A stretch of 38,551 nucleotides of DNA from Cytophagales bacterium (GTDB lineage: Bacteria > Bacteroidota > Bacteroidia > Cytophagales > Spirosomataceae), in NCBI GenBank assembly GCA_031423975.1, contig JANPGQ010000311.1:1-38551 (forward strand), written 5' to 3'. Positions 3,526 to 28,800 of the stretch are shown here, one piece after another. The translations under genes and the position numbers were made by a program. The notes below the pieces were generated by a model. That model made no database searches and was not told the DNA's origin. It was given only the letters and a program-made list of their open reading frames with translations. The number at the start of each line of letters is the position of its first letter. The first letter of the stretch is position 1.

Positions 3526-4206
3526 CTAAAACATATCATCAAAAAGTACCGTAACAAATATACCAATTGACTGATTATAATATTGAAAAGTACGGTCGTC
3601 GGCTACGTTATTCAAGCCTAAACTGTATGAAATGCCTATTTGGGTGAATTTTTCTACTTGTATGCCAATACCCATATTGAAACCGTAGTCTATTCTATTT
3701 AAGCCATTGCCAAAAGTTCTTACCGTATTGCTAAACGTACTGTCTGCCCTGTTTCTTTCACTGAGCCGAACGCCTGAATAGACATTTTTACCCGTGATTC
3801 CTACGCCTAAATACGGCCCTGCCCATACGCATAATTGCGTACCAAAACTGTCACGATTTCCGAAAACATAATTCAAATTTGGACAAATGTCTAAGTAATG
3901 CAATTCAAGCGAATTTTCGGTATAAGTAGAATCCGTAAAATTGTATTTGGACTGAAAACCACGAGGACTGTAATGAATTTCGGGTTGAAAACTTAGGCTT
4001 TTAGACAGTCTATAACTAACGCCAAAACCTAAATCAACCACGGGTTTTAGTTTAATACTATTACCGAAAGGAATATTGTCGCCATAGACATTTACTGCTT
4101 TTACGCCAAACCGAAAAATGGAGCGTTCTTTTTTGAGTTGAGCAAAACAATGAGCGGTTGTAAAGAAAGATAGACAAGCAATTAGGGTTATAATGCGTTT
4201 AGACAT
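3526..4206 (-). CDS. Outer-membrane beta-barrel protein (PorT/OMP_b-brl_2-like porin family)
   Basis: Signal peptide ending CFA/Q. Motifs FRFGVK, SFQPEIHYSPRG, LHYLD, AGPYLG, DYGFNMGIG and YSLGL. C-terminal Phe. Confidence 0.75.
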   Translation of the reverse strand: MSKRIITLIACLSFFTTAHCFAQLKKERSIFRFGVKAVNVYGDNIPFGNSIKLKPVVDLGFGVSYRLSKSLSFQPEIHYSPRGFQSKYNFTDSTYTENSLELHYLDICPNLNYVFGNRDSFGTQLCVWAGPYLGVGITGKNVYSGVRLSERNRADSTFSNTVRTFGNGLNRIDYGFNMGIGIQVEKFTQIGISYSLGLNNVADDRTFQYYNQSIGIFVTVLFDDMF

Positions 4207-4326: not shown

Positions 4327-5298
4327 TCACAAATTGCGAGGGTCGATGATGATACTGTCGTCTTGGGGTTTGGTAAAACGATATTTCAACATGAGTTCGT
4401 GCGAACCTATCTGCCCTTGTGTACCTATTGGTGCGTTGTAGGCATATCCAAATTGAATTTTGGAACTCACTTGTATTTGTAGAAATCCTACGAACAAATC
4501 TCCTAATCGTACATTTTTGGAAGCATCTCTGAATTGCTGATTACTACTGCGATAGGATGTTCCGAGGGTAAGTTTTTCTAATAATTCCAATTTTGCGTTA
4601 AAATCAAAAGTAGGAGGGGCGTTTTCAATCACTTTCACCAAAACCGAAGGCTCAAAGCTAATGTATCGGGTGAGTCTTGCCCGATACCCTATTTCTCCAA
4701 AATAATAGCGTACTTGTTTATTCTGCCCAGTCGAGCCATTTGTCTCGGTCAAACTCAAATCGTTGGGAATAAACTGGGGAACTGATAGTCCTATGTAAAA
4801 ATTTTGATTGTTCAAATACACTCCTGCTCCTATATTGGGCAAATATTTATTGACATTTTGGGTAAAATTTGGGTCGATAGGAGTTCCTGTATTTACGCAC
4901 GTAAGACAGGCTCTGAAATTAGTTGCTCCCGCCTGTACGCCCATGGTCAGATTCATGTTATCATCATTCAGTTTTACTTTATAGGCGTAATTCAAGAGCC
5001 CGCCCGTGCTTTTCACAATGCCCGCAATATCATTAAAAAACTGAAAACCAAGACTCACTTTTTCGCTTTTTAGTGGTAAAACTCCAATAATTGCTTGCAC
5101 CTGTGGGTCACCTTCAAAATCTGCCCCCAGCCATTGTTTTCTGTACAAAACGTTGACTTCGGGCGTAGTTATTTTGCCTATTTGAGCAGGGTTTATCGCC
5201 ATAGGATTAAAAATATATTGCGAATAAACGGCTTCTTGTTGGGCTTGAATATGATAAAATCCGAAGAGGTAAATGAGGGTAAAGAATATCTTTTTCAT
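4327..5298 (-). CDS. Type IX secretion system membrane protein, PorP/SprF family
   Basis: Signal peptide then QQEAVYSQYIFNPMAINPA, YRKQWLG, NYAYK, PNIGAGVY, YIGLSVP, EPSVLVK, LGTSYR, FGYAY and GSHELMLKYRF, the characteristic PorP/SprF motif order. Confidence 0.92.
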   Translation of the reverse strand: MKKIFFTLIYLFGFYHIQAQQEAVYSQYIFNPMAINPAQIGKITTPEVNVLYRKQWLGADFEGDPQVQAIIGVLPLKSEKVSLGFQFFNDIAGIVKSTGGLLNYAYKVKLNDDNMNLTMGVQAGATNFRACLTCVNTGTPIDPNFTQNVNKYLPNIGAGVYLNNQNFYIGLSVPQFIPNDLSLTETNGSTGQNKQVRYYFGEIGYRARLTRYISFEPSVLVKVIENAPPTFDFNAKLELLEKLTLGTSYRSSNQQFRDASKNVRLGDLFVGFLQIQVSSKIQFGYAYNAPIGTQGQIGSHELMLKYRFTKPQDDSIIIDPRNL

Positions 5299-5404: not shown

Positions 5405-7837
5405 TTATTTATTAATGCTCTTAGTTTTTACAACTGAATACGGTACACAAACATTTGGTTTACAGCAATCTACGCTAACAAATTCGGCAGGGCAACATCC
5501 TCCTGCGGGACAACTTCCGACTAAGGTAGTAAAGGTATAAGTTCCCACAGAATTTACTCTTAATGTTGATGCCGTTGCACCACTAATTACCGTTCCGTTT
5601 TTATACCATTGAATTCCTTCATAACCCGTTGGAACGGTAATATCATATTCATCACCACTTCCAGAACAGATTTCGATGGGTACATAAAAGCAAGCCGAAG
5701 CATTATCATCTTCCAATATAGGATTGGTGGTGTTACCCGTTGTGTAAGTATTGCCTGGTTTTGAATCTTTATCCACTTGGTCGCAAGTCATTACTTCTGC
5801 AACATTGAAAAAAGTGCCTTGAGCCACAGCCTGAACGGTTATCATCAAATTGATGGTTTGTTGTCCTGCTAAATTTCCAACCGTCCAAATACCCGTAGAT
5901 GAATTATAAGTACCTGTAGAAGTAGCATAAGTTTTAAACAAAACACCTGCTGGCATATAGTCTTTTACACTAACACCCGTTGCTAAATTTGTACTTTGGT
6001 TAGTTAATGAAATGGTATAGGTAATTAAATCACCAATGATAGATTTTTTCTGATTAACCGTTTTTATCAAGGCTAAATCAACTTCTACCTGTGGATTAAC
6101 TATTCCTGTTACCGTGAAAACAGCCCAAGCACTAACGCACTGATTGTTGGTGTTACAAGCCTGATATTGAATAGAGTCTTTACCTACATAACCCGTTGTG
6201 GGCGTATAAGTAAATGCACCATTAGTTGATAAAGTAATACCACCATGGAGTGGTGTTGGTAATGGAGATATTTTCACCGTTAAAGTACCCGCCGGGGTAT
6301 CATTGGCTAATACATTTCCAGAAACTGGGGTATTTACTGGCGTTGAATAAACATCACGTACTGCCACAGGTGCAGTGCTGGTAACGGTGAAAACCGCCCA
6401 AGCTTTTACGCATACATTGTTTACATCGCAAGCCTCATATTGAATAGAATCTTTGCCTACATAACCTGTTGTGGGCGTGTAAGTGAAAGCACCGCTGGTT
6501 GATAAGGTCAAACTGCCATGTAGTGGAGTGGGGAATGGTGATATTTTCACGGTTAAACCTCCGCTTGGTGTATCGTTGTCAAGTACATTTCCAGAAACTG
6601 GCGTGTTGAAAGGCGTTGAATACACATCACGATTTGCCACAGGTTGTACTGGTGGAGGACCCACCGTTGTGAAAACCGCATAAGCCTTTACACATACATT
6701 ATTGCCATTGCAGGCTTCGTATTGAATAGAGTCTTTGCCTACATAGCCCGTTGTAGGAGTATAAGTAAAAGCACCATTGGTCGATAAAGTTAAACTGCCA
6801 TGTAGTGGAGTGGGGAATGGTAAAATTTTCACGGTTAAACCTCCATTTGGTGTATCGTTGGCAAGTACATTTCCAGAAACTGGCGTGTTGAAAGGCGTTG
6901 AATACACATCACGATTAGCTACCGGTGCGGGTCCTGTTACGGTAATAATAATATAGGCTTTATCACAAACACTTCCTGCATCACAGGCTTCGTATTGAAC
7001 GGAGTCTTTACCTACATATCCCGTTGAAGGGGTATAGGTAAATGCTCCCGTTGAAGACATCGAAATACTGCCATGAAGTGGCGTGCCTAATGAGGATATT
7101 TTGACGGTTAAACCCGTTGCTGGAATATCATTGGTGAGAGCATTGCCCGAAACGGCTGTATTAATAGTGGTACTGATATTATCATTAACCGCATCCACAG
7201 TAGGATTAGTACAAAGCGTGTTTAAACAAACGTTATAGCTTTCAAAAACGCCCCCTGCTGGTACAGTTGGGTTACTATAATCGTAAGGATCAGGCGTGAT
7301 TACGATGATTTCGTTCATTCCTGTTACGGGAAAATCCGTATTGGTGTTGTCGGTATGCCATTTAAAATTGACACATCCATCTCCTTTCACAATATCAAAT
7401 TGAATGCAAGCAATGGTGATATAAGCTGTTCCTACTTGTTTAGCACCTGCATTACTGCCTGAATATAAAACATTTAGAGATACCAATCCCATTGTGCCAT
7501 CAGCACTAAGTTTTGACCCCGTTAAGGTTTGAGTTCCGTAGTTGGAATCACTGGCGGGAGCGGCATTCGAGAAATTTTCTTGGCTAATGTTTTTAGGATT
7601 ATTTACAACAGTGGCGTCATAATCAAAACGGAAATTTCCGTCTCCTAATTTGAACGTCGAGTTGGCATCGTGTGCTTTTACCTGTACCTGCAAGACTACT
7701 TTCTTGGTGATACAGTCACTACTTTTTAGTTTGAGTCTAACATCAAACTTTCCATTTGGCGTTGTTTGTGCAATAGACGGCATTGCCCAAAGCAATACCA
7801 TCAGACAAGTTAAAGTGGCGGCTAAAACTTTTCTCAT
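5405..7837 (-). CDS. Secreted 810-aa protein: cohesin-like N-domain, 4 Big_9/cadherin-like Ig repeats, DUF11 domain, Cys-rich C-tail
   Basis: Signal peptide SIA/Q. Repeats of PVA.RD.YSTP.NTPVSGNVL.ND...GAFTYTP.TGYVGKDS.QY.AC. DUF11 pattern VDLALIKTV...GDLITYTI.LTN...ATGVSVKD.MPAG...WTVGNL. Ends CPAGGCCP...CCKPNVCVPYSVVKTKSINK. No type A or type B CTD seen. Confidence 0.85.
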   Translation of the reverse strand: MRKVLAATLTCLMVLLWAMPSIAQTTPNGKFDVRLKLKSSDCITKKVVLQVQVKAHDANSTFKLGDGNFRFDYDATVVNNPKNISQENFSNAAPASDSNYGTQTLTGSKLSADGTMGLVSLNVLYSGSNAGAKQVGTAYITIACIQFDIVKGDGCVNFKWHTDNTNTDFPVTGMNEIIVITPDPYDYSNPTVPAGGVFESYNVCLNTLCTNPTVDAVNDNISTTINTAVSGNALTNDIPATGLTVKISSLGTPLHGSISMSSTGAFTYTPSTGYVGKDSVQYEACDAGSVCDKAYIIITVTGPAPVANRDVYSTPFNTPVSGNVLANDTPNGGLTVKILPFPTPLHGSLTLSTNGAFTYTPTTGYVGKDSIQYEACNGNNVCVKAYAVFTTVGPPPVQPVANRDVYSTPFNTPVSGNVLDNDTPSGGLTVKISPFPTPLHGSLTLSTSGAFTYTPTTGYVGKDSIQYEACDVNNVCVKAWAVFTVTSTAPVAVRDVYSTPVNTPVSGNVLANDTPAGTLTVKISPLPTPLHGGITLSTNGAFTYTPTTGYVGKDSIQYQACNTNNQCVSAWAVFTVTGIVNPQVEVDLALIKTVNQKKSIIGDLITYTISLTNQSTNLATGVSVKDYMPAGVLFKTYATSTGTYNSSTGIWTVGNLAGQQTINLMITVQAVAQGTFFNVAEVMTCDQVDKDSKPGNTYTTGNTTNPILEDDNASACFYVPIEICSGSGDEYDITVPTGYEGIQWYKNGTVISGATASTLRVNSVGTYTFTTLVGSCPAGGCCPAEFVSVDCCKPNVCVPYSVVKTKSINK
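6580..6916. repeat. Near-identical intragenic tandem repeat units (282-nt period)
   Basis: The 55-nt string caagtacatttccagaaactggcgtgttgaaaggcgttgaatacacatcacgatt occurs identically at 6580-6634 and 6862-6916. Confidence 0.85.
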
Positions 7838-7997: not shown

Positions 7998-8912
7998 CTA
8001 ATAATTCACGGTAATGAAACGAGTGAAGTTCTTTCCGTCTGCTCGTTTCACAGCGTAATAATATGTTCCTGGACTTACGGCACGGCTATTATCAAGTCCA
8101 TCTTGATTTGGCTTACCATCCCATTCGTTTTTATAATCGTCTGCTTTGTAAATCACCCTTCCAGAACGGTCAAAAATGGTAATACCCATATTGATATTTT
8201 CAGGATTTTTGATTTCGAATTTATCATTTACTCCATCTCCATCTGGCGAAAACCCCTCTGGAATGAAGAATGATTCGTTGGTTGGCAATTTTGATTCCGC
8301 TGAACAGGTAGATGCTAAATCAATTTTGAGGCTTTCAAAAGTTCCTGTTGCTTTGATATTTTGAAGTTGGAATTCATTATCTCCATTAGCATCTTTGTTT
8401 ATCAAAACTTCGTTCATACCCGTAGCAGGGAAACTCTTTCCCAAGCCTTCTTGCCACTTGATTTCCATGACTGATTTCAAGTCCACAAGGTCGAAACTAA
8501 GGGTTGAGACGGTTAGGTATTGTGTGCTAACCTCAGTAGCACTTTCACCCAAACCACCATAAAAAGTGTTTAAAGAAACGATGCCTTCTTTCATGCGTGC
8601 TGTACTTCCATTCAAATTATGTGAGCCATAATTTTTATCGGAAATTTCACCATGAGATGAGAAAAAGCCTTGCTTTTCGAGGGTTGGATTACTGATAACT
8701 GTGGGATTGTATGCCATTCTGTAATTAGCATCACCCATTTTGAATTTTGATTTTTCATCATGAGCTTTTACTTGTACATCCACTGATAATTTTTTGGAAG
8801 CACAGTCTAATTTCTGGGTGGCGATTCTGACATCGAAAACGCCATTTTGGGCATTCACGGCATGGCTGCCGATGAGCGAAAGCCCTAATATATAAAGATA
8901 TTTTTTGTTCAT
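7998..8912 (-). CDS. 304-aa T9SS substrate: cohesin-like domain fused directly to a type B (gliding motility-associated, CHU_C) CTD
   Basis: Start MNKKYLYILG at 8912, signal peptide VNA/Q. The C-terminus FFIPEGFSPDGDGVNDKFEI...IFDRSGRVIY...YKNEWDG...PGTYYY...FITVNY is the type B CTD pattern. Confidence 0.9.
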   Translation of the reverse strand: MNKKYLYILGLSLIGSHAVNAQNGVFDVRIATQKLDCASKKLSVDVQVKAHDEKSKFKMGDANYRMAYNPTVISNPTLEKQGFFSSHGEISDKNYGSHNLNGSTARMKEGIVSLNTFYGGLGESATEVSTQYLTVSTLSFDLVDLKSVMEIKWQEGLGKSFPATGMNEVLINKDANGDNEFQLQNIKATGTFESLKIDLASTCSAESKLPTNESFFIPEGFSPDGDGVNDKFEIKNPENINMGITIFDRSGRVIYKADDYKNEWDGKPNQDGLDNSRAVSPGTYYYAVKRADGKNFTRFITVNY

Positions 8913-9071: not shown

Positions 9072-12000
9072 TTAATGCAATACTCCTGAATAACGTCCGC
9101 TATTTTGTTTCCATAAGCTGTTATCCATAAAGTTTGAGTCGGCATCTAAATTGAAATCACTCAATAAATAAATATCAAAACTTCCTGATAAACTCTTCCA
9201 TAGGAGTGAATCTTTGAAATTGATGTCGTAATTATCATTGATAGTAGCTTTTGAACCATCTGCAGCGTACATCACGAACTTAGTACCAACCTGTTTTTCT
9301 CCAAATGATGGAGGGTTTGTTAGCTGATAGCTTTGTTGTGCCGTAAAGTCATACGTAATTTTACCAGCCGATACAGGCACTTTTACGTGCGACATTACCC
9401 CCATGTGATTGCGATGTTCGATAACCACGTAGAATGAACCACTCGGTAAAGTGAAGCATGGATTGACAAAACTAATGTGTCCGTCGCTGTGCAATAAACC
9501 TGCCACACTGAGAGCCTTGCTTGCCTTTGTCGAATCTGTACGAAGCGATACCAAAACCCAATCAACCACCGTAGTAGGATATGCAGTTATGGTTTCTGAC
9601 CCTGTATAACTAAATGGTAATAAATTGTAGGGTTGTCCTCCTGGTGTTGCCACAGCATAATTTCCCACAGGTGTTTGTCCTGGTAATAATCCTCGTTGAT
9701 TCAAAATGGTACTCATCAAACCTGTATTTGAGTCATAAGGTCCTTGAAGAATTACCTTGAAGTCAAACGTAACGCAAGGCTGTTCTAATATAGTAATATA
9801 TGCCGTTGCAGTAGTGCATAAAACTGGCGAACCATTATCACAAACCTTATACGTGAACACATCTGTACCCACAAACGTAGCGTTTGGTGTATAGGTAAAT
9901 GCACCCGTAGTGGCATTGAATACAATCGTTCCGTTGGCAGGGTTGGTCAATTTGGTAAATGCCAATATTTGCCCTGCATCGGGGTCGCTATCGTTCAAGG
10001 CTACTGAGGCTGATACAGATGTGCCTTTGAGCGTAATCTTGTAGTCGTCATTAGCAACTGGTGGATTATTTACTATCCCAACGGTTGCATCTTTTACATT
10101 GATTGTTACTACCGCCGTATCACATTTTGCAGTATTTGAAGCATCACAAACTTTATATTTATAGGTATCAATTCCTACGAATACTGGGTTTGGTGTATAA
10201 GTCATCGTGCCATTTGCATTAGTTACTACTGTACCGTTTAGTAGTGTTCCGATAGCCGTTGGCAAGCCCAAAGTACCTGCTGTATAAGTATCGTTTGCCT
10301 TTACAGAAATAATAACCGCCGTAGCTTTTGGGGTAACAGCATTATCGTCCAATGCCACTGGTAGTGTATTTGCTTGTGGTGTAATGCTGGGATCAATGAT
10401 GGTCAAATATGCCGTAGCATTTGAACACATAATTGGCGAACCATTATCACAAACCTTGTAAGTAAACAAATCACTACCTACGAATCCAGAATTTGGAATA
10501 TAAGTATATGTTCCGTTTGGATTAAAGGTAAGCGTTCCGTTTACTGGGCTTGACGTATTGCTGAAAGTCAAAATCTGTCCTATATTCGGGTCAGAATCAT
10601 TGGTAGCTACTGACGACGTTATGGTTGAATTTTTGTTCAACGTTTTAGCATCGTCCGTTGCTACTGGTGGTTCGTTTTTCACTACATTCATTGACTCATT
10701 TACTGAAACTGTTACGGTTGCAGTACTACATAACGAAGGTGTTCCCGAATCACAAACCTGATACGTGAAGGTATCGTCGCCAGTTGTTCCTGGGGTTGGC
10801 GTATAAGTAATCGTTCCATCAGGATTCACTACTACCGTTCCTTTGGTTGGCGGTGTGGTGATAGTCGGATTCTTCAAAGGCGTACCTTCTGGGTCGGCAT
10901 CATTGGCTAATACATTGATAGTTAAGGGCTTGTCTTTCGGCGTACTCGTATTGTCAGGATTGGCTAATGGTGGCAAATTTGTACCAGAAGTCAATGGCGT
11001 TGTGATGGTAATGGTTACCGTAGCGGTATCACACAATGAAGGCGTTCCGTTATCACAAACCTTGTATTTGAAAGTATCATTACCCGTAGCCGTTGGATTT
11101 GGCGTATAGGTAAATGTTCCGTCTGGCAAAATTGTAACTGTTCCTTTGGTTGGTGTTCCACCCATAATTGGACCCGAAGCTACTAAAGGATTGCCCTCTG
11201 GGTCGGTATCATTGGTCAAAACATTACCTGTTATTGGTGTACCTTTTGGGGTTACGGCAATGTCATTCGTAGCAATTGGAGCATCATTTTTAGGTAATAC
11301 TGTTATTGGAATGATAACATTGGTACAAATTCCTGAAGCATCACAAACTTTTACACAAACCGTATCTTTTCCCGAAAAATTAGGAAGTGGCGTGTAGGTA
11401 ATACAAACCTGATGTGGCGTTGTACTATTATTTACCGTAACCGTAGTAGCACCGTGTTTCGGAGCAGCACATAATGAAACTGTATGCGTTTCGTTGGCAT
11501 CGGGGTCATTTATTGGCAAACAAACCGTTACGGTACTATCTTCAGGTACAATGATTGGCGTTGGCACAATAACTGGAGGGTCTGGTACAGGCGTAACTTT
11601 CACAGGTACTTTGATGGTAGTACAATTTCCATAAGCATCACACACCTTCACACATACCGAATCAGTACCATTAAAATTAGGATTGGGCGTGTAAGTAGTA
11701 CAAACCTGATGTGGTGTTAAAGTATTATTTACCGTGTAAGTAACCGTTCCGTTTAATGCACCACAAGGTGTAACCGTATGAGTATCAACTGCATCAGCAT
11801 CCACAATTGGCATACAGAATGTGATTGGTGTCCCGTCTTCTGGCATCGTTGGTGGCGTAACTGGTGGTGTAATTACTGGTGGTGCTGAATTGATATTCGT
11901 TACCGTCAAAATCACCGTTGCGTTGCTACATAATACTGGCGTTCCGTTATCACAAGTCTTATACGTGAACATATCCGTACCCACATAATTGGTAGCAGGT

Positions 12001-15000
12001 GTATGGGTATATGCTCCTGTTGTTGGATTGAAACCCGTGATTGTTCCGTGCGAAGGAGTTGATAATTGCGTGTAAGTCAATACCTGTCCTGCATTTGGGT
12101 CAGTATCATTTGTGGCTACAAAACCATTCACAGGTACATTTTTAGGTGTTTGCTTACTATCGTCCACAGCATCAGGAGGAAGGTTTACTGCCCCAATTGG
12201 TTTTGGAGTAAGTTCAACCGTTACCGTGGCAGTATCACACTTTGAAGGTATGCCTGTATCACAGATAATATATTTGAAAGTATCCGTTCCCGTAGCCGTT
12301 GGACTGGTTGGCGTGTACGTTACCGTTCCATCAGGATTTACTACTACCGTTCCCTTCGTTGGACCAAAAGCTGGTACAAGCGTTGGAATGGTCAATGGCG
12401 TACCGTCTGGGTCAATGTCATTCGCTTTTACATTAATCACTAATGGCGTTCCTGCTGGTGTAATTACGTTATCATTTACAGCCAAAGGAGGTCTATTTAC
12501 CCCTGGCGTTGAAGTAGGGTCAAATACTTCAATCGCTACCGTTGCCGTATCACAAAGCGTTGGCGTTCCATTATCACAAACACGATATTTGAATACATCC
12601 GTACCCACAAATGTAGGGTTTGGCGTATAGGTATATCCACCTGTTGGCGTTACAGTCAATGTTCCATTAGCTGGTGACTTTACTGGTGTTGTTGATACGG
12701 TCAGTGTTTGTCCTGTGTCAGGGTCTGTATCATTTGTCAAGACGTTTCCAGCTACTGGTATGGCTTTGGGCGTAATGTTTACATCATTGATAGCCACTGG
12801 TTTATCGTTTACAGCCGTTACCGTGACAGGAATTTTTACATCAGTACAAAGCCCCGAAGCATCACATACTTTTACGCAAATGGTATCTACACCATTGAAA
12901 TTAGTAAAAGGAGTATAGGTTACGCAAAGGGTATGCGTTACATTATTTACCGTTGTAGTTGCCGTTCCGTTTTTAGGCGTTGCACAAGGCGTAAGCGTGT
13001 GCATATCACCTACATCTGGGTCAGTTATTGGCATACAAACCGTTTTAGAAGCAGAATCTTCTGGCATCGTAAGCAGTACTGAAATTACGACTGGTGGGTC
13101 TGGTAAGGGCGTAACTGTAATGGGAATAGTTACGTTAATACATTTTCCATAAGAATCACAAATTGTCAAACATACTGAATCTTTACCTGCATAATTTGCC
13201 GTTGGTTTATAATTCAAACAAACTTGATGCGTAGTGTTATTTACAGTTGGAGTGGCTGTTCCATTTTTTGGAACTCCACAAACTGTAACCGTATGCGTAT
13301 CATTTTTATCGGGGTCTGAAATTGGCAAACATAATGTACTAATTGGCGAATCTTCCGCAACCATCTGAGGTGTTGGCGTAACAACTGGTGGGTCTGGCAC
13401 GGGCGAAACCACAACTGGAATTAATACGTTGGTACATAATCCCCCTGCATCACAAACTCTTACACAAATAGTATCCTGACCGTTGAAATTAGGGGCAGGG
13501 CTATAAGTAACACAAACTTCATGCGTAGTATTATTCACAATAGCTGTTGCATTTGAACCCGCTTTTGGCGCAACACATAAACCAGCAGTATGCGTGTCTG
13601 TTCCGTCTGGATCTGTAATTGGTAAACAAATTGTCTTAGCCGCAGAGTCTTCGGGCATAGTAATTTGCTTTGGTAAAACCACAGGAGGGTCATTCACAGG
13701 CGTAACTTTTACGGGTATTTTCACCGTTGTACAAGCTCCATTATTATCACACACTTTCACACAAATCGAATCCGTACCATTAAAATTTGGATTAGGCGTA
13801 TAGCTCAAACAAACCTGTTTGGTGGTAGGATTCGTACTGGCGATAGTAGTTGTTCCGTTGTTTGTCCCACAAATACTTGCGGTGTGCGTATCGGTAGCGT
13901 CAGCATCTGAATAGTTGAAACAAATCGTCAGAGGCGTAGCTGGGTCTTCGGGAGTTGTGGGTGTAACGGCTGGTGGAATAATCACTGGTGCGGTATTAGA
14001 CGGTGCTGTTACTGTCAAATATACCGTAGCGGTATCACACAAAACTGGCGTTCCATTATCACATACTTTATATATGAAAGCATCTGGACCTGTATAGCCC
14101 GTTGTGGGCGTATAGGTATAACCGCCCGTTGGGGTTATAACTACTGTACCATGTGCAGGAGCGGATATTGGTGCGGTGGTGTATGCCAAAATTTGCCCAG
14201 CATTGGGATCAGTATCGTTACCAAAAAATATTCCTGTCAAAGGAGTATTTTTCAGCGTAGTACCTGCATCATCACCTGCAATCGGTTTGTCATTGGCTGT
14301 GATAGGATTATTATCTACCACAACATCAATGGTGGCAGTGGTGGTTGCACACGCTTTTGGCGTAGCATTATCACATACCTGATACGTGAAAACATCTTGC
14401 CCGCTAAATCCTGAATTTGGCGTGTAGGTGTATGTTCCGTTTGGTAAAATAGTTACCGTTCCATTGGTTGGAGGGATTACTGGCGTAGTAGTTGCCGTAA
14501 GCGTTTGCCCTGCATTGGGGTCAAAATCATTACTCAATAAATTGCCAGTAACGGGCATTGAAACATTGGTTTGGGTAACATCGGGTTGAGCAACTGGTGG
14601 TGCATTTACCCCTGGTAAAGATGGTAGTGCCAAGATAGTAATTGTTACCAAGGCAGTATCACACTTTTGTGGAATTACATTATCACAAATTTTATATTTG
14701 AAAATATCTGTCCCCGAATAGCCCGTTGTAGGCGTATAGATATAAGTTCCATTAGCATTTAATACTACTGCACCATGCGTTGGGCTGATAATTGGCGTAG
14801 TGGTAACAATCAATCCAGAGCCAATATCGTTAGTGAGAACTTGTCCAGAAACGGCTATATTTAAGTTAGTAGTATTGATGTCATTTACTGCCAAAATGGG
14901 TGAACAATAGGTACTCATACAAGAATTAGCATTGCCAAAATAACCACTTGCCTTTACGTCTGCTTGTTTATACTCGAAAGAAGGGTCTGTTATAATACCG

Positions 15001-15563
15001 TAAACTTCATTCATACCCGTAACTGGCGATGTTTTGTCATCGTTCCAAGTAAGGTCAAAACAGTCATTTCCATTCACTACGTTAAACTTTATACAAGCTA
15101 CAGTTGCCCATTTAGGAGTAACTAATTTAGCTCCTTGGTTTGAACCAGTATAAAATGTATTCAGCGATACAATTCCTTCGGTAGGACCTTCGCCCGAACC
15201 ATTTAAGTTCTCGAAACCATAATTGGTATCACTCGAAGGAGCTTTTGCTGAATAATTTTCTTGACTCACCAAACTCTGTGCAAAGGTTGGCGAAACACCC
15301 AAAAGCCTCAACTGAGTGGTTTTGAACCGAAAACGATAGTTGGCATCTCCCATCAGGAAGGTGTCGGCAATGGAGGTAGCCCGAACTTGTACGGCAATGG
15401 TGAGCGTTCTGGGTGAGACAGAACAGTCAGTACTTTTGACTGTAAATCTCACATCGAATTTTCCCGCTGCTACGGGATGCATACCACTCTGTGCTCGGGC
15501 GGTACTGATTATTCCCAAAAAGAGAAAAACAGCAGAGAACAGCGTTAATAGCAGTTTTTTCAT
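9072..15563 (-). CDS. 2163-aa secreted adhesin/stalk protein: cohesin-like N-domain, ~17 Big_9/cadherin-like repeats, C-terminal dockerin-like domain
   Basis: Signal peptide ARA/Q. Manual count of 17 repeats (P.A..D...T...ND.DP...G.YTYTP...G.D.F.YKVCD.G.P..CD.ATV). The C-terminal ~235 aa run KVILQGPY...VVDWVLVSLR...EHRNHMGVMS...DINFKDSLLW...DFNLDADSNFMDNSLW. Confidence 0.88.
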   Translation of the reverse strand: MKKLLLTLFSAVFLFLGIISTARAQSGMHPVAAGKFDVRFTVKSTDCSVSPRTLTIAVQVRATSIADTFLMGDANYRFRFKTTQLRLLGVSPTFAQSLVSQENYSAKAPSSDTNYGFENLNGSGEGPTEGIVSLNTFYTGSNQGAKLVTPKWATVACIKFNVVNGNDCFDLTWNDDKTSPVTGMNEVYGIITDPSFEYKQADVKASGYFGNANSCMSTYCSPILAVNDINTTNLNIAVSGQVLTNDIGSGLIVTTTPIISPTHGAVVLNANGTYIYTPTTGYSGTDIFKYKICDNVIPQKCDTALVTITILALPSLPGVNAPPVAQPDVTQTNVSMPVTGNLLSNDFDPNAGQTLTATTTPVIPPTNGTVTILPNGTYTYTPNSGFSGQDVFTYQVCDNATPKACATTTATIDVVVDNNPITANDKPIAGDDAGTTLKNTPLTGIFFGNDTDPNAGQILAYTTAPISAPAHGTVVITPTGGYTYTPTTGYTGPDAFIYKVCDNGTPVLCDTATVYLTVTAPSNTAPVIIPPAVTPTTPEDPATPLTICFNYSDADATDTHTASICGTNNGTTTIASTNPTTKQVCLSYTPNPNFNGTDSICVKVCDNNGACTTVKIPVKVTPVNDPPVVLPKQITMPEDSAAKTICLPITDPDGTDTHTAGLCVAPKAGSNATAIVNNTTHEVCVTYSPAPNFNGQDTICVRVCDAGGLCTNVLIPVVVSPVPDPPVVTPTPQMVAEDSPISTLCLPISDPDKNDTHTVTVCGVPKNGTATPTVNNTTHQVCLNYKPTANYAGKDSVCLTICDSYGKCINVTIPITVTPLPDPPVVISVLLTMPEDSASKTVCMPITDPDVGDMHTLTPCATPKNGTATTTVNNVTHTLCVTYTPFTNFNGVDTICVKVCDASGLCTDVKIPVTVTAVNDKPVAINDVNITPKAIPVAGNVLTNDTDPDTGQTLTVSTTPVKSPANGTLTVTPTGGYTYTPNPTFVGTDVFKYRVCDNGTPTLCDTATVAIEVFDPTSTPGVNRPPLAVNDNVITPAGTPLVINVKANDIDPDGTPLTIPTLVPAFGPTKGTVVVNPDGTVTYTPTSPTATGTDTFKYIICDTGIPSKCDTATVTVELTPKPIGAVNLPPDAVDDSKQTPKNVPVNGFVATNDTDPNAGQVLTYTQLSTPSHGTITGFNPTTGAYTHTPATNYVGTDMFTYKTCDNGTPVLCSNATVILTVTNINSAPPVITPPVTPPTMPEDGTPITFCMPIVDADAVDTHTVTPCGALNGTVTYTVNNTLTPHQVCTTYTPNPNFNGTDSVCVKVCDAYGNCTTIKVPVKVTPVPDPPVIVPTPIIVPEDSTVTVCLPINDPDANETHTVSLCAAPKHGATTVTVNNSTTPHQVCITYTPLPNFSGKDTVCVKVCDASGICTNVIIPITVLPKNDAPIATNDIAVTPKGTPITGNVLTNDTDPEGNPLVASGPIMGGTPTKGTVTILPDGTFTYTPNPTATGNDTFKYKVCDNGTPSLCDTATVTITITTPLTSGTNLPPLANPDNTSTPKDKPLTINVLANDADPEGTPLKNPTITTPPTKGTVVVNPDGTITYTPTPGTTGDDTFTYQVCDSGTPSLCSTATVTVSVNESMNVVKNEPPVATDDAKTLNKNSTITSSVATNDSDPNIGQILTFSNTSSPVNGTLTFNPNGTYTYIPNSGFVGSDLFTYKVCDNGSPIMCSNATAYLTIIDPSITPQANTLPVALDDNAVTPKATAVIISVKANDTYTAGTLGLPTAIGTLLNGTVVTNANGTMTYTPNPVFVGIDTYKYKVCDASNTAKCDTAVVTINVKDATVGIVNNPPVANDDYKITLKGTSVSASVALNDSDPDAGQILAFTKLTNPANGTIVFNATTGAFTYTPNATFVGTDVFTYKVCDNGSPVLCTTATAYITILEQPCVTFDFKVILQGPYDSNTGLMSTILNQRGLLPGQTPVGNYAVATPGGQPYNLLPFSYTGSETITAYPTTVVDWVLVSLRTDSTKASKALSVAGLLHSDGHISFVNPCFTLPSGSFYVVIEHRNHMGVMSHVKVPVSAGKITYDFTAQQSYQLTNPPSFGEKQVGTKFVMYAADGSKATINDNYDINFKDSLLWKSLSGSFDIYLLSDFNLDADSNFMDNSLWKQNSGRYSGVLH

Positions 15564-15834: not shown

Positions 15835-18800
15835 TCAATGTGCCACTCCTGAGAAGCGACCATTATTTACTTTCCAAAGCGTATTATCTGAATTATTTAC
15901 ATCCGCATCGAAGTTATAATCTCCTGATAAATAGCGGTCGAAAATACCTGATTGTAACTTCCACAAATTCGAGTCGGCAGCATTGATATCGAAGTTATCA
16001 TTCTGCAATGCCTTCTTATGGTCGGCTGCATACATGACATATTTACCCGCTTTCACTTTCTGACCATACGATGGAGGGTTTGTAAGTGCATAAGAATCAT
16101 TGGTGGTAAAGTCATAGGTAAGCGTACCCGTTGTTACCGTTATTTTCTTATCACTCATTACACCCATGTGGTTACGATGTTCAACCAAAACATAATATGA
16201 ACCGTTGGCAATGGTGAAACATGGATTAACAAACGTTACGTTACCGTCAGCGTGCAGTAAACCTGCGGCTCTGAATACTGGCGTAGTGGTTAATGAATCG
16301 GTTCTTAATGAAATCAATACCCAATCCACTATATCAGTGGCATATCCACCCAATGGCATGGCTTCTGTTCCTGCATAATTCCAAGGAGTTCCCGAATAAG
16401 GCTGACCGTTTGGCGTAGGCGTTGCGGTAATGCCAATTGGAGTTTGTCCTGGTAATAATCCTCTCACATTCAAGAAGTTATTCATCAATCCAGAAACTGT
16501 ATTTAATGGTCCTTCTAATAATACTTTCAGATTAAAGTTTACACAAACACTCAAAATTGGGTCTTTTACAGAGAGATATACCGTAGCAGTATCACATAAA
16601 CTTGGTGTACCATTATCACATACTTTGTAGAGGAATTTATCTGTACCTACGAATGTTGCGTTTGGCGTATAGGCAAACGTTCCATCTGGATTAAAGCTCA
16701 CCGTTCCATTGGCAGCGAGTGTTAATAACGAATACGATAAGGTCTGTCCTGCATTCGGGTCATTATCATTCAAACTTGCACTTTTGTTGATTCCTACACC
16801 TTTGTTGGTGGTGTAAGCATCGTCATTAGCTACTGGTTTGATGTTGCCACCTCCGCTATAATCAGGCGTTACTTTTATTGTTACCGTGGTGGTATCGCAA
16901 AGTGCAGGTGTTTGATTATCACATACTTTATATTTGAATACATCCGTACCCACAAATCCTGTGGCTGGGGTATAAATATAAGTTCCGTTGGTGTTCAAGA
17001 CTGCCGTTCCATTCGTTGGATTCGTCAGTTTTGTGAAAGCTAACGTTTGTCCTAAGTCTGGGTCGAAATCATTTGAAGCCACCGTGCCACTTACTGGAAT
17101 ATTTACCAAAGTCTGATTGACATCGTGTATTGCCGTTGGTTTGTTATTAATTGGCGATACCGTTGGTGCATCTTGGACGTATAAATAAACGTAAGCTATA
17201 TCACATTCGGCAGGTACTTTATTATTACACATTTGATATTGAGCCGAGTCTTTTCCTATAAATCCAGTAGTTGATGTGTAAGAATACGTTCCGTTCGGAT
17301 TTAACGTTAAAGTTCCGTGCGTAGCTGGTGCGAGTAATGAAACCGTTACTGGCAAACCTTTCTTATCGTCATTGGTCAATACATCACCCGTTACCGTAGT
17401 ATTTTTCGGAACGATGTTAATGTCGTCAAATGCTACTGGTGAACTTACCGTTGGAATTGGTGATGGCAACACACTTACGTAAACCGTTGCAGTATCACAT
17501 AAGCTCGGCGTTCCGTTATCACAGGCTTTGTAGGTAAATTTATCAGGTCCTGTATATGCAGTTGTTGGAATATACGTGTATGAACCATCTGCATTTACCG
17601 TTACCGTTCCGTGAACTGGATTCGATACCTTCATGAATGAGAGCGTTTGTCCAGTATTTAGGTCGCTATCATTTGGTGCTACTGTGGCAGTTTTTGCAGT
17701 ATTGATATTAGTAACAATAGCATCATCCTGAGCATTTGGAGCATCATTTCCTCCCACTGGACTCAGTTTAGGCGTTACGTCAATTGTTACACTGGCAGTA
17801 TCACAAAGCACTGGCGAACCTGTATCACAAACCTTATAAGTAAATTTATCTTTACCGATAAATCCACTATTTGGTGTGTAAGTAAATGTTCCGTCTGGAT
17901 TAAATACTAATGTACCATTGACTGGATTTGTCAATTTAGTAGCCGTTAAAATTCCTCCTTCTGGATCGGTATCATTATTGGTTACTTTACCCGAAACTGG
18001 TATATTCACCAAGGTCTGAGCCACATCTGCACTGGCAATTGGTTTATCATTTGCGGTATTTGGCAATGGTGCAACGTTAATATATAACCACGCTTTACTA
18101 CATTCTGCGGGTACTTCGTTATTACAGATTTGGTACTGAACCGAATCTTTACCCACAAATCCAGTGGTTGGAATATATCCATACGTTCCATTAGGACTGA
18201 TGGTTAATGAACCGTGCTTGGCAGTGGTCAATTGCGTAACCACCACTGGCAAACCTTTCTTATCATCATTGGTCAATACATCTCCCGTTACCGTTGTGTT
18301 TATCAACGTATTGTTAATATCATTGACTGCCAAAGGCTGCGTTGATGATGGTGATACGGTCAGATAAATCGTTGCGGTATCACATTTCACTGGTGTGCCT
18401 GCATCACAAACTTTGTAAGTAACGGTATTGCCACCTATTGGTTTACCCGTCAATGGGTCAATGGCTGGCGTGTAGGTTACATTACCCAAAGCATCAATCG
18501 TTACGTTTGGATTACCACCTAACTTGGTGAATGCCAATGGCGTACCTTCTGGGTCTTTATCGTTTCCACTTACATTGTACGTTACTGGTTTACCCTCAAT
18601 TCCCAAAATGGCATCATCAATTGCCACTGGTGGCTGATTGACGGCTGGATTTGGTGTTACAGGCTCAACCGTGATAATCACTTTTGCGGTATCACACAAT
18701 ACTGGCGTTCCGTTATCGCATACTTTGTACTTGAATACATCCGTACCCGTAAATCCTCCGTTTGGCGTGTAAGTGAAAGTACCATTCGGGTTCATCGTTG

Positions 18801-21800
18801 CCGTTCCGTTGGTTGGATTCGTCAATGTGGTGAATGTGAGCGTTTGACCACTATCTGGGTCAAAATCGTTGATACTGGCATTACCACTTACAGGTGTACC
18901 TGCGTTGGTTTGTGTTACGTCATTGAATGCCACTGGTTTATCATTCGCACCCGTTGCTGGGTCAGGAATAACCTTGAATGTTACCCAAGCCGAATCACAT
19001 TCTACTGGCACGGCGTTGTTACAAATCTTATATTTTACCGAATCCACACCCACAAAATTAGGGTTTGGCGTATAGGTATATGAGCCGTCAGGATTCAAGG
19101 CAAATACTCCATTTTTAGCAGGCGTAATTACCGAAGGCGTAACTGGCAAACCTTTCTTATCATCATTGGTCAAAACATTTCCTGTTACTGGCGTATTCAC
19201 ACGTACCACAGCAATATCGTCTTGTGCATCTGGCTGTGTCATAGATGGCTGGGTTCTTAATTCAACTGTTGCGGTATCACACAATACTGGCGAGCCGTTA
19301 TCACACACTTTGTATTTCACCGTGTAAGTTGCTCCTGGCAATGCAGGGTCAATTCCTGGTGTCCAAACCAAAGTACCCGTTGGCGACAATGTTACCATTC
19401 CTTTGGTAGGTTGATTCAACAAAGTATAAGTCAAAGTCTGTCCTGCGTTAGGGTCACGGTCATTTCCTATTACCGAGGTTGTAACAGTTTGTCCACCCGT
19501 CGAAACTACTACATCGTCTCCTGCATCAGGTTTCAAATTAACCGTTAGCGGAAGCGTTGGGTCTAATGGTACTATTTTGATTGTTACCGTAGTAGTATCA
19601 CAAAGACTCGGCGAGCCATTATCACAAATTTTATACTTGAAGACATCCGTACCTACAAAAGTAGGGTTTGGTGTGTAGGTATAAGTTCCGTTGGCATTTA
19701 CCGTAACCGTTCCATTAGCAGGGTCAGAAATCTTACTTGTGGTGAGGGTCTGTCCTAAATCTGGGTCATAGTCATTGCCCAAAACTGAACTCGAAACAGG
19801 CGAACCTTGCTGTGTAACCACATTGTCTGGCATTGCCACAGGTTTGTCATTGCCAGCCGTTGGATATGGAATGGTATTGATATACAACCAAGCCGAATCA
19901 CATTGTACTGGAATTAGGGCATTACAAACCTTGTATTTCACCGAATCACGACCTACATAATGCGGTACGCCGCCCGTAGGATTTGGCGTGTAGGTATAGC
20001 TTCCATTTGGATTAAATACAATCGTTCCATTTTTAGGATTCGTCAATTGTGAAGCCATCAGTGGATTGCCCTTAGAATCATCATTGGTCAAAACATTTCC
20101 TTTTACTGGCGTATTAGGCGAAGTAATGGCGATGTCGTTTTGAGCCACGGGATTCGTGATTTTATCATCCGTTTCTATCGTGATAATCACCGTTGCCGAA
20201 TCACACAATACGGGTGAACCGTTATCACAAACTTTGTATTTGAACGAATCATTACCCACAAAACCAGCAGTTGGTGTGAAGGTATAAGTACCCGTTGTTG
20301 GATTAAATCCTGTGATTGTTCCGTGTGCAGGATTACTTAATTGACTGAATACCAAGGTCTGACCAGCATCTGGGGCGGTGTCGTTTAGGGCAACCGTTCC
20401 TGATTTTGGCGTATTGATTTTCGTTAATAAAGCATCGTCCTGAGCAGCTGGTTTACTGTTTGCATTCAATGGCGTAATGACTGGCGTTACGTCAATTTCA
20501 ACTTTTGCCGAATCGCATTTTACTGGATTCCCGTTATCGCAGGCTTTGTAAGTGAAGTAATCTTTTCCTACAAAACCAACAGTTGGCGTATAAATATAGC
20601 TTCCGTCAGGATTCAACGTTACCGTTCCATGTGCAGGGTCGGTCAATTTCGTTGCCACAAGAACATCACCCAAATCAGGGTCCACATCATTGCCCAACAC
20701 ATTGCCTTTTACGGGAACACCTGCTTCGGTTTTTGCCACGTCATTATTGGCAATTGGCTTATCATTTTGAGGCGATGGCACATCACTTACATTGAAGTAA
20801 ATGTAGGCAGTATCACATCTCACCATTGGGATTTCGTTTACGCAAATCACGTATTTCACCGAATCTTTACCCACATAACCCGTAGTTGGTGTATAGATAA
20901 ACGAACCGTCTGGATTGATAGCAATGATACCATGTTTCGGAGCAGTTCCCGATGGTAAACCTACCACCAGAGGATTGCCTTTTGAATCATCATTGGTCAA
21001 AACATTACCCCCAACAGGCGTGTTTTTAATCGTCATGGCAATATCATTCACCGCATCTGGCTTGTTAGCATCAGGTTGTTTTGGCGGTAAAACTGTCAAA
21101 TAAACCGTAGCCGTATCGCACATTACAGGCGTTCCGTTATCACAAATCTTGTACGTGAACGAATCAGTACCAATAAAAGTAGCATTAGGTGCATAGCTGA
21201 ATGTTCCGTTGGCATTCATGATTACCGTTCCGTTGGCAGGATTCGTTAATTTGCTGAATGCAAGCGGTTCGCCGCCCGACGTATTACCATTCGGGTCGCT
21301 ATCGTTTTGAGCGGAATTACCGTTTACTCCTACGCCTTTATAAGTTACATAGGCATCGTCATTAGCAACAGGTTTGTCGTTTGAATTAGCACTTTTTGGC
21401 TTCACTTCAATTGTTACTGTGGCTATATCACACTTCACTGGCGTTCCGTTATCGCATACTTTGTATTTAAACATATCAATACCCGCAAAGTCCGTAACTG
21501 GAGTGTAGGTATAAGTTCCGTCTGGATTGAATACCAAGATACCGTCATTAGGGTCTGTTAAGTTGGTATAAGTCAATATCTGAGCAATATCTGGGTCGAA
21601 ATCATTATTGCCCACACTACCATTTACTGGCTTATTCAGGTACGTTACCGATACATCATTACTTGCCACAGGCGGATTATTATCAACCATTGAAGGTGGA
21701 TAAGGTAATACGTTCAGATATATCCATGCGGTATCACATAAACTGACAGTATTGCACAGAATGTATTTTGTCGAATCTTTACCGACAAAATTGGCTTTTG

Positions 21801-24800
21801 GTACATAGGTATAATTGCCGTTTGGTAATAAGGTTATCGTTCCGTTTTTTGGAGGAGTAGCCGTTACCAAACTGGTTGTAACTACCTGTCCTGCCTTATC
21901 ATCATTCGTTAAAACATTTCCAGAAACTGGGGTATTTTTAAACGTCAAGTTAATGTCATTAATCGCATTTGGGTTATTGGTAACTGGTGGTATTATTGTT
22001 AAAAATACCGTTGCAGTATCACATAAACTCGGCGTACCATTATCGCATACTTTATACAAGAATTTATCTGTACCTGAATAACCAATAGTTGGGGTATATA
22101 CAAATTGACCCGTTGTTGGATTAATCGTTACCGTACCGTGTGCGGGGGCAGTTACTGGCGTATTTGAATACGTCAATGTTTGTCCTACATTCGGGTCAGA
22201 ATCATTTGGTTTCAATTGATCTGTTACCGCAGTATTCATGGCTGTGATGGCAGCATCATCTTGGGCATTTGGTTTGTCATTGGCAAGTTCGTTGATGTCG
22301 GGACTAACTGTGATGCCTACGCAAGTTGAGTCGCAAGCATTAGATGGATCGCAGATTTTATAACAGAATACATCATTGCCCACAAAATTTGCATTTGGCG
22401 TATAAATAAATGTTCCATCTGGATTAAATACTATCGTTCCATTGACAGGGCTTTTCGTTAAAGTAGCCGTTAAAGGGTCTCCATCTGGTTCGAGGTCATT
22501 GTTTGTAACCTTACCCGAAACAGGAACATTCTTCAAAGTCTGAACCACATCACTATTAGCAATGGGTGGGTTGTTTCCGTTCACAAATGTGCCAGGCAAG
22601 ATGGTGACAATTATCCAAGCCGAATCACATCTTGATGCTGCATTACAAATCACATATTGAGCCGAGTCTTTGCCCACAAAACCAGTTGCTGGGGTGTAAG
22701 TATAAACTCCATTCGTTGCAACTGTCAAGTTTCCATAAATTGGATTTTTTACTAAAATCGGATTCGTAGTAAATGGCAAACCGTTTCCAGTATCATTCGT
22801 AGCGGTATTTCCTGAAACTGGTTTGTTTTTTAAAGTTACGTTAATATCGTTCTGAGCGTCTGGCGTTGGTGCTAACACTACTACATAAACGGTTGCGGTA
22901 TCACACAAAGTTGGACTACCATTATCACAAACCTTATACTTAAACTGGTCTGTTCCGAAGAATCCCGTAGCAGGGGTATAAGTATAATTTCCAGCCGCCG
23001 TAATAGTTACCGTTCCATGTACAGGAGGCGTAGTTGGCGTGGTAGTGTAAGTCAAAGTATTACCATTCGGGTCGGTATCATTAGACTTTAATATACCCGA
23101 AACTGGAATATTAAGATTTGTTAAAGCTGCATCGTCTTGTGCATTTGGACGGTCGTTCGTAGTGCCATTATAGTCTGGCGATACCGTAATTACTACCGTA
23201 GCCGTATCGCAGGCACCCTTTGTATCACAAACTTTATACTGAAATTTGTCTCTACCTGTGAAATTAGGGTCAGGCGTATAAGTATAAGTTCCGTCTGTGT
23301 TTAGCGTAACTGTTCCATTATCAGGCTGTACAATCACCGAAGCGGATAACACATCACCGTCTGGGTCAATATCGTTATTGGTAACTTTGCCCGATACGGG
23401 TATGTTTTTCAAAGTCTGCCCTGCATCGTCGCTGGCAACAGGAGCATTATTGATAAAACGAATTGGGTCAATTACATTGATGGTCAGCCAAGAAGTATCA
23501 CAAAGCGAAGCCGTATTACAAATCACATATTGAACAGAATCCTTACCCACAAAATCAATTGTAGGCGTGTAGGTATATGAACCGTTGGCATTGAGGGTAA
23601 TAGCTCCGTGCAATGGGTCCACCAAAGCATACGGTGTTAAAGTAAAGGCTAAACCTCCACCGTTATCATTGGTCAAAATATTACCCGAAATAGGGTTGTT
23701 TTTTGTTGTAATATTCACATCAAGTTGAGCATCAGGCACGGGAGGTACAACTACGATGTATACCGTTGCGGTATCACATAAACCTGCGGCATCACAAGCC
23801 TTGTATTTTAATTGGTCAGTTCCAAAATAGCCCAAAGTTGGGGTATAAGTGAAAGCTCCATTGACAGCCAAAGCAAAAATTCCGTGGGTAGTTGGCGATG
23901 TCATCGTAGTAGTTAAAACATTACCGTTCGGGTCAGAATCGTTTAAACGAACATTACCCGTAACGGGAACACTCAAGGTAGTACGATACGAATCGTCTTG
24001 AGCGAATGGAGCATCATTGGTGGTTATCCCATTAGCATCTGGTCTGATATAAACTACTGCTTTTGCTGTTGTACACTGGTTCAAATCATCACAAACTTGA
24101 TATTCAAAAGTATCTGTTCCGATATATCCTGGGTTTGACGTGTAAGTATATGAGCCATTGGCATTGATACTCACCGTTCCGTGACTTGGATTACTGACGG
24201 GGATAAGCGTATATTTCAACGCCCCATTTTCAGGGTCAAAATCGTTGCTCGCCAAATTACCCGAAACAGGGATATTCATATTGGTTTGAGCCACATCGTT
24301 TTGAGCAATCGGTGGTAGGTTTGTGGTAATGCTTGGTTTATAAACGTTCAAGTATAAAGTGGCGGTAGTACACAAATTATCTACCGAACAGATTTTATAA
24401 TTAATCGAATCTTTACCCACAAAATCAGTAGATGGCGTGTAAGTATATGTTCCGTTTGGATTGAAAACTATCGTTCCATGATTTGGCGTTGTTGTCGCTG
24501 TAAAGACATCCGTTGTGGTAGTTTTTGTATCATTAGTAGCCACAGAGCTACCTACTGGCACATTTACCAAGGTTACGTTGATGTCATTAATAGCCAATGG
24601 AACGGGTTTAATCGTTACAAGCACCTTAATAGTTGTACAGGTTGCAGTAACCGCATCGCATAGGGTTACACAAACAGAATCTGTACCCACAAAGCCAGGT
24701 TTTGGTTTGTAGGTTATACAAAGTTGTCCGCTTTCAATCGTGGCTAATGCCGTTGCTCCCGCCACCTTTGGATAACCTGGGCAAGAAGCAGCCGTAGCAC

Positions 24801-28776: not shown

Positions 28777-28800
28777 AAATTTAATTCTGATTGTTTGGTA

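Follow-up and report, generated by a model that had tools for sequence, protein, structure and literature searches.

A small cohesin-fold protein with a T9SS type B C-terminal domain as a putative adaptor for dockerin-tailed giant proteins encoded beside it in a Cytophagales bacterium

In a 38,551-nucleotide stretch of DNA from a Cytophagales bacterium (contig JANPGQ010000311.1; the window), five co-directional genes encode proteins of the secreted type, of which only the smallest, with 304 amino acids, bears a type IX secretion system (T9SS) C-terminal domain (CTD). The locus raises the question of how the untagged proteins cross the outer membrane, and whether the small tagged protein takes part. 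The gene order on the minus strand is 885 aa, 4323 aa, 2163 aa, 304 aa, 810 aa, porP and a small beta-barrel, with intergenic gaps of ~95–270 bp. A promoter/terminator scan stayed at the level of shuffled sequence (44 versus 39.5, and 10 versus 10.5), and co-transcription is therefore not supported by the scan. The closest named relatives belong to Arcicella. In the genome itself, SprA and GldM were found over the cut-off by profile search, indicating that the T9SS core is present. The features of the cluster are listed below, where X is an N-terminal domain and Y a C-terminal tail.

3526..4206, minus strand: outer-membrane beta-barrel (PF13568; Pfam), after porP; also found 3' of porP in genome G008
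4327..5298, minus strand: PorP/SprF-family barrel (P0006; TIGR03519, 223.6 bits, cut-off 90.55)
5405..7837, minus strand: 810-aa protein (P0002; HMMs) with signal peptide, X (7202-7768), four Big_9 repeats, DUF11 and CVP-CTERM
5420..5470, minus strand: CVP-CTERM putative sorting motif of the 810-aa protein (NF058574, 23.3 bits, cut-off 19)
7998..8912, minus strand: adaptor gene, 304 aa (P0001; HMMs, model), with signal peptide, predicted cohesin-fold domain, linker and type B CTD
8001..8270, minus strand: T9SS type B CTD of the adaptor, residues 215-304 (TIGR04131, PF13585)
8271..8297, minus strand: 9-residue linker, residues 206-214 (sequence, HMM boundaries)
8298..8849, minus strand: domain X of the adaptor, residues 22-205, modelled with a cohesin fold (model, Foldseek, VIA-align)
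8850..8912, minus strand: Sec signal peptide, residues 1-21, with Gln after the cleavage site (inspection, hydropathy)
9072..15563, minus strand: 2163-aa putative extender (P0003; HMMs) with signal peptide, X, 17 Big_9 repeats and Y; no CTD
9075..9788, minus strand: tail Y of the 2163-aa protein, predicted X-module plus dockerin, loop positions 10-11 FK and FM (model, structure search)
14898..15491, minus strand: X of the 2163-aa protein, cohesin-like and containing an insertion of 8 residues (alignment)
15835..28806, minus strand: 4323-aa giant (P0004, probable ATG 28776; HMMs) with N-terminal head region, 27 Big_9 repeats and Y; no X, no CTD
15838..16560, minus strand: tail Y of the 4323-aa giant, with AA and NS at loop positions 10-11 (sequence comparison)
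28901..31558, minus strand: 885-aa ORF (P0005, probable ATG 31465; alignment, HMMs), paralogous to the head of the giant but lacking the stalk; X, Y and CTD all absent

The sequence-only reading had described the 304-aa protein as a signal peptide, domain X, a linker of about ten residues and a type B CTD with nothing else, and the HMM boundaries bear this out with a linker of 9 residues. The signal peptide has a K-rich start and a hydrophobic core with cleavage before Q22, as judged by inspection and hydropathy. The CTD scored 47.4 bits against TIGR04131 (cut-off 35) and 70.3 bits against PF13585 (cut-off 27). With a C-terminal CTD, an N-terminal Sec signal, porP nearby and the T9SS core in the genome, the adaptor is, judged from its sequence, T9SS type B cargo by every feature examined. 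The bare X-CTD form was seen in 26 of 84 homologues (295–312 aa, at least 93% query coverage, PF13585 present), and a second group of homologues consists of X-CTD plus one Ig repeat; the alignments indicate that the bare architecture is a conserved family.

The four other proteins had been said to carry Sec signal peptides and no type A or B CTD over more than 8,000 aa, and this held. In the 810-, 2163-, 4323- and 885-aa proteins (8,181 aa together), neither TIGR04131 nor TIGR04183 gave a match at E<=1 (0/4), and by inspection all four have a hydrophobic core followed by an AxA-Q-like site, which in the 4323-aa and 885-aa ORFs is preceded by a long N-terminal extension. The scan of all five proteins, which had been suggested as a check, thus shows that the giants are not canonical CTD proteins and that the adaptor is the sole type A/B-CTD protein among the five genes. 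PF13585 was found weakly in the 885-aa protein (14.6 bits, residues 832-852), under the cut-off. Searches with Pfam and the NCBI HMMs detected no autotransporter barrel or other export domain in the giants, and no catalytic domain was detected by Pfam in the Big_9 partner proteins. On the plus strand, 33285-34490 encodes a protein with a lamin-tail domain and a type A CTD that has no relation to the cluster; the statement that the adaptor is the only tagged protein is therefore true of the gene cluster, not of the window.

The 304-aa protein has its porP two genes downstream. Type B cargo is described as needing a cognate PorP/SprF protein in roughly stoichiometric amount (PMC12618676), and as being anchored by staying bound to it (PMC9143113; PMC12635249). 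P0006 is the probable cognate carrier of the adaptor's CTD. The known type B cargo/PorP pairs (SprB/SprF, PG1035/PorP, Fjoh_3952/3951) share with the cluster a Sec signal, a TIGR04131 CTD and a porP gene in the cluster. In systems of the SprB/SprF type, however, the CTD is on the giant, whereas here it is on the 304-aa adaptor, with porP two genes downstream and no adjoining porE. SprF is reported to be linked to GldK through Cys-x-Cys (PMC12635249); the C-terminal tail of P0006 contains no cysteine, and thus no Cys-x-Cys of this kind. Whether the PF13568 beta-barrel belongs to the adaptor system is uncertain.

Two points were absent from the sequence-only reading, namely the CVP-CTERM motif on the 810-aa protein and the restriction of Y to the 2163-aa and 4323-aa proteins. 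The 810-aa protein is probably a second cohesin acceptor. No literature on the CVP-CTERM motif was found. CVP-CTERM-like ends also occur elsewhere in the same genome, in three tandem genes (G000:C87, 4641-15619) and one further gene (C662, 2-952); one of the four scored over the NF058574 cut-off, and no CTD gene lies alongside. The 885-aa protein aligned with the giant's head at 34% identity over 649 columns, and at 55% over 169. Its end consists of a C-x-x-G-T-x-x-P motif that is internal in the giant (residue 666), and gene ends resembling it recur in genomes G016 and G021; such an end might represent another type of joint or signal.

Domain X begins three proteins of the cluster (304, 810 and 2163 aa), the adaptor's X being 40% identical to that of the 810-aa protein and 37% to that of the 2163-aa protein. 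A structural model based on 56 sequences (pLDDT 93.9) matched cohesins in all 38 rows listed by Foldseek (best E 1.7e-6), and cohesins filled the top 20 rows of VIA-align (best Z 13.3, rmsd 2.7 Å over 141 residues), the best non-cohesin row having Z 8.9. Domain X thus models as a cohesin beta-sandwich fold. As to the cohesin type, Foldseek puts type II first, and VIA-align ties type I-like with type II rows. The Pfam cohesin family (PF00963) did not match the window's X domains, and matched weakly in two of 101 aligned X proteins (best E 3.1e-4). A PDB sequence search with a three-row X profile gave no match, and one with a 56-row profile gave a single cohesin, 1g1k, at E 0.73.

Tail Y ends only the 2163-aa and 4323-aa proteins, whose tails are 58% identical, and is 238 aa long in the former. 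Outside the cluster, the genome contains no further X or Y. Its model (67 sequences, pLDDT 95.7) shows a beta domain followed by two loop-helix repeats, with helices at 191-200 and 220-229. All of the top ten Foldseek matches were either X-dockerin chains of type II or pieces of scaffoldin that include such a chain (best E 2.7e-5). In an exhaustive alignment against 48,161 chains, two X-dockerin chains scored Z 10.5 and 10.1 over ~150 residues, followed by a lone dockerin (Z 4.8) and an unrelated fold (Z 4.7). Tail Y thus models as an Ig-like X module plus a two-helix dockerin. In agreement with this, the tail contains a duplicated Ca2+-binding loop-helix with D/N at positions 1, 3, 5, 9 and 12. 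The second repeat is canonical (D-x-N-x-D-x-x-x-N-x-x-D), and the first loop has a 5-residue insertion in the window's proteins and is canonical in distant relatives. Pfam Dockerin_1 (PF00404) matched neither of the two tails in the window (0/2); among 29 relatives of Y it was found at E<=0.02 in 11, and over the cut-off in three. A PDB sequence search with Y returned an X-dockerin chain at E 0.16. Intein matches at E 0.49, also met in the PDB sequence searches, were rejected as chance.

Loop positions 10-11 set specificity in clostridial dockerins. These positions differ between the two dockerins of the cluster (FK/FM versus AA/NS), and the split is kept in Arcicella-like loci. There are exceptions, since two loci (L034, L036) pair small-residue dockerins with adaptors.

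In six solved structures (2b59, 4u3s, 4wi0, 5k39, 5m0y and 5g5d), X and Y match opposite partner chains, cohesin and X-dockerin respectively. Identity to solved structures is 9–16%. A shared fold does not by itself prove an interaction. In our estimate, X very likely binds Y.

Gene pairing was followed through several sets of genomes. Among 61 genomes (the own genome and 60 relatives), X was found in 12, each with a strong Y on the same contig (12/12), and 12 more had a distant Y only, with no match to the narrow X profile. Of 42 loci fetched with X, 17 contain a gene for X with a type B CTD; Y lies directly upstream in 15 of these, and in the remaining two the preceding gene is a broken X gene. 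The 17 are not all independent, seven coming from close Arcicella-like relatives. porP was located within two genes of the X-CTD-B gene in eight of the 17 loci and was absent in eight, the contig ending in one. A Y-ended gene also lay directly upstream in each of five loci that only X had retrieved (5/5). In a phylum-wide sample, 16 of 401 genomes were positive for X and 56 for Y, and 14 of the 15 other X-positive genomes also carried Y; X diverges faster, but some Y may be unpaired. A phylum search whose alignment included CTD columns gave 282/401, a tally that is not an X count; all that was used from it were the five loci spanning X and, for control purposes, 24 CTD loci. An X match at E 6e-4 in one genome (G328, locus L088) looks spurious.

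The pairing was also approached from the side of Y, using the 29 best Y loci, each from a different other genome. In all 29, Y was at the extreme C-terminus with no CTD after it, as it was in 120 of 120 Y proteins of a separate set. The idea that the CTD had been split off from the giants onto the adaptor is thus not supported, the CTD never being seen after Y. In 18 of the 29 loci the gene after Y, at most 200 bp away, encoded a 309–419-aa protein over the TIGR04183/TIGR04131 cut-off (17 type A, one type B). The other 11 comprised two CTD genes under the cut-off, three cases at a locus edge, two unrelated next genes and four in which no gene was found; one of the three edge-cut loci leads into a Y array ending in CTD genes. 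In the controls, which used self-built CTD profiles, a small CTD protein came next after 13 of 1,637 genes in the own genome, after one of its 43 CTD genes, and after none of 24 CTD genes in other genomes. For 19 genes downstream of Y, the N-terminal domains aligned to X (hhalign 95%, E 3.7e-8), four of the 19 having already scored with X profiles, and a profile of these 19 domains ranked the 304-aa adaptor first of 18,663 genome ORFs (E 2.6e-4). The adaptor feature is real, non-random and widespread.

In five Larkinella species (L027, L029, L030, L031, L040), the X...Y gene that precedes the adaptor is either shortened or divided over different frames, and the adaptor is mostly intact, with an in-frame stop before the CTD in L027. 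This may represent either decay or programmed variation. In another locus (L152, G350:C21), four tandem Y-ended genes precede three type A CTD genes. A second, divergent class of Y ends further giants (4,700–5,000 aa) and 735–739-aa proteins in the upstream part of three clusters (G013:C1, G012:C465, G030:C1), so that some clusters contain four dockerin-tailed genes.

The reading we favour, with a probability of roughly 0.6, is that the adaptor binds the dockerin tail of its untagged giant neighbour, pulls it through the T9SS and stays on the surface bound to PorP. Sec is the inner-membrane route of signal-peptide proteins, and all partners, having signal peptides, would cross the inner membrane in this way. 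Once in the periplasm, the 2163-aa protein would bind the cohesin of the adaptor through its Ca2+-loaded dockerin, and its own N-terminal cohesin would be bound by the dockerin of the 4323-aa giant; the result would be a head-to-tail rod with 44 Ig (Big_9) repeats. This choice of partners is suggested by the Y-then-X gene order, which occurs twice, and by the difference between the dockerins at the recognition residues. In the weakest step, which we infer, SprA and the PorP of the cluster would take up the CTD, and the protein would exit CTD-first with the bound chain behind; the uncleaved type B CTD would then stay on PorP and anchor the rod, by analogy with PG1035/PorP and SprB/SprF. Type A substrates are reported to leave SprA CTD-first, and type B substrates are expected to do likewise (PMC10994853). 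Type B secretion is described as needing more than 200 C-terminal residues (PMC10202324), which in the adaptor would extend over half of the cohesin. Since the giants bear a Sec signal but no detected means of crossing the outer membrane, periplasmic binding with co-export is favoured. That the adaptor anchors a chain of giants is likely on this evidence, and that the giants are co-exported with it through the T9SS is somewhat favoured.

A chain of 44 repeats would be very roughly 180–200 nm long, assuming 4–4.5 nm per repeat. The Big_9 stalks point to adhesion, and the rod probably serves as an adhesin or as a spacer that holds the giant's head off the surface. The sequence-only reading had all the giants either carried by X-Y binding or using Y as an unrecognised secretion signal. 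The first part is strongly, if indirectly, supported by the predicted cohesin and dockerin folds and by gene adjacency across the phylum, but only for the two proteins that carry Y; X-Y binding cannot make passengers of the 885-aa and 810-aa proteins. The 885-aa protein is outside what the adaptor model explains. Untagged Sec proteins with neither Y nor CTD in such clusters include this one and three scanned in genome G030, and another export route or joint may exist for them, which could serve the giants too.

The principal alternative, rather unlikely in our estimate, is that the adaptor is an anchor only, the giants exiting the periplasm unaided by means of an unrecognised signal, be it Y or some other element, and docking on the adaptor afterwards. 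Cellulosome cohesin-dockerin pairs indeed assemble outside the cell after separate export. Moreover, Y is always at the extreme C-terminus, the place expected of a signal; in two genomes (G186, G224) most of the dockerin and cohesin-CTD genes are dispersed; Y-less, CTD-less proteins occur in the same clusters (the 885-aa protein, G030); and CVP-like genes are found elsewhere in the own genome. The type C CTD described in PMC10202324 indicates that unrecognised signals exist. Against this, the fold of Y is that of an X-dockerin dyad, and CTD structures matched its model only at background level (8glk_D, E 0.23 with Foldseek; 8qb1_A, Z 3.5 by alignment), so that Y as a secretion signal is disfavoured. 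The giants also contain no detected autotransporter barrel or export domain, and Y genes are tightly coupled to a CTD protein, be it type A or type B, which is consistent with reliance on it.

It is improbable, on the present data, that X binds Y without the proposed relay, the 810-aa cohesin/CVP-CTERM protein being the main acceptor or both dockerins docking on the adaptor. The cluster does have three cohesins for two dockerins, and X-CVP genes are conserved in or near adaptor loci. However, an X gene directly follows the Y genes in a repeated order, dockerin positions 10-11 differ consistently in Arcicella-like loci, and minimal loci (L040, L045, L046, L048, L057) consist of Y and X-CTD without an adjacent X-CVP gene. 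In three further cases (G033, G035, G428:C7) the gene after Y encodes X with a short Cys-Pro tail and no CTD, which would suit such wiring, but none of these tails matched NF058574 at E<=0.01 (0/3); that CVP-CTERM replaces the CTD on small adaptors is weakly supported by these sequences. Highly improbable is a role of X as a cohesin-like ligand-binding or spacer domain, in which the adaptor would be ordinary type B cargo and the dockerin-like tails Ca2+-binding or self-associating. Jelly-roll and pilin-like adhesin folds do score Z 7.4–8.9 against X, Y is found in more genomes than X, and non-cellulosomal cohesins and dockerins with no assigned role are common. Yet both halves of one known type of complex are adjacent across distant families, far above the controls, and Y accompanies X in nearly every other X-positive genome (14/15).

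Among known systems, the nearest to the favoured reading is SdbA/CipA of Clostridium thermocellum (2b59, 2bm3, 5g5d, 3kcp), which has the same arrangement of a small anchor with one cohesin and a large partner tailed with an X-module and dockerin. In contrast to SdbA, the adaptor belongs to a Gram-negative host with an outer membrane to cross, and has no SLH or sortase cell-wall anchor, with a T9SS CTD and PorP in place of SLH. CipA is a cellulase scaffold, whereas the partners here are Big_9 rods, and the cluster's Y is ~80 residues longer than XDoc of the SdbA/CipA type, at 9–16% identity. By analogy, the adaptor would work like SdbA, but it is not a member of that system, with neither SLH nor a multi-cohesin cellulase scaffoldin as partner.

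Adjoining Ig-repeat proteins with modelled binding have been described in Chlorobium chlorochromatii (Cag_2038/Cag_2037; bioRxiv 10.64898/2026.03.19.712371). Compared by that description, the upstream protein has a C-terminal dockerin and the downstream one an N-terminal type II cohesin, as here, but the pair is attributed to type I secretion (RTX), and the portion of the preprint available mentions neither a T9SS adaptor nor PorP. In Ca. Stygibacter (Cloacimonadota), a CTD-bearing cohesin protein was proposed to hold dockerin-bearing secreted proteins on the surface (PMC8542988). That system, known from annotation only, comprises a 3,755-aa multi-cohesin scaffoldin and enzymes, and the accessible sections of the source give no X-dockerin dyad, minimal adaptor or claim of export. 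Dockerins of rumen Bacteroidetes have been catalogued, with no T9SS link seen in the available part of that study (PMC6487960). Tannerella potempins, considered as piggy-back cargo, were dropped, no such passage being found in the accessible text of PMC9890683. Within the open-access literature (subscription journals and bioRxiv supplements were beyond reach), we found no description of cohesin-CTD adaptors for CTD-less X-dockerin proteins, and no publication in which the T9SS co-exports a protein that has no CTD. The pairing is apparently a combination of two known systems that has not been described. The work of Peer et al. (2009) on non-cellulosomal cohesins and dockerins may list cases from Bacteroidota.

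T9SS secretomes are predicted by the CTD, and if a dockerin tail and a cohesin-CTD adaptor suffice for export, such inventories miss a class of cargo. Of the 401 genomes sampled, 56 contain tail Y, which Pfam misses in most of them. The odds are about even that the cluster exemplifies a hidden class of CTD-less T9SS cargo, in about one in seven of the sampled genomes, in which a C-terminal X-dockerin clips the passenger to a periplasmic cohesin-CTD adaptor and the translocon pulls a non-covalent chain, here a three-protein rod of ~6,800 residues ordered by dockerin specificity. The class would comprise adhesins, metalloproteases and other passengers, with adaptors of type A or B and multi-cohesin scaffolds. 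If this is true, the T9SS translocon can move non-covalent complexes, and the anchoring joint of the cellulosome has been reused across an outer membrane, building very long surface rods from separate genes. The 304-aa adaptor and the 238-aa tail could also serve as a modular tool for surface display.

Tail Y also ends M43 metalloprotease/GEVED proteins (P0191, P0195, P0197-P0201, P0203, P0204, P0208-P0210), so that passengers would include enzymes. The C-termini of the 150 best X proteins, tallied with profiles partly built from the same proteins, were CTD-A in 45, CTD-B in 24, Y in 22, CVP-like in 17, of IPTL/PRTG type in four, and none or truncated in 38; with such mixed ends, X behaves as a docking module with interchangeable anchors. 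At least two X domains were found in 22 of the 150, ten of which end in a type A CTD, and five scaffoldin-like proteins (P0219, P0293, P0301, P0308, P0270) have four to seven in tandem. Four proteins combine X with an IPTL-CTERM tail or a PRTG-plus-transmembrane tail (P0275, P0279, P0280, P0315), and their sequences suggest that X is used outside T9SS hosts too. In one further locus (L151:4974-6206), X is fused to a GCX_COOH (3-coathanger stack) C-terminal domain (NF045639).
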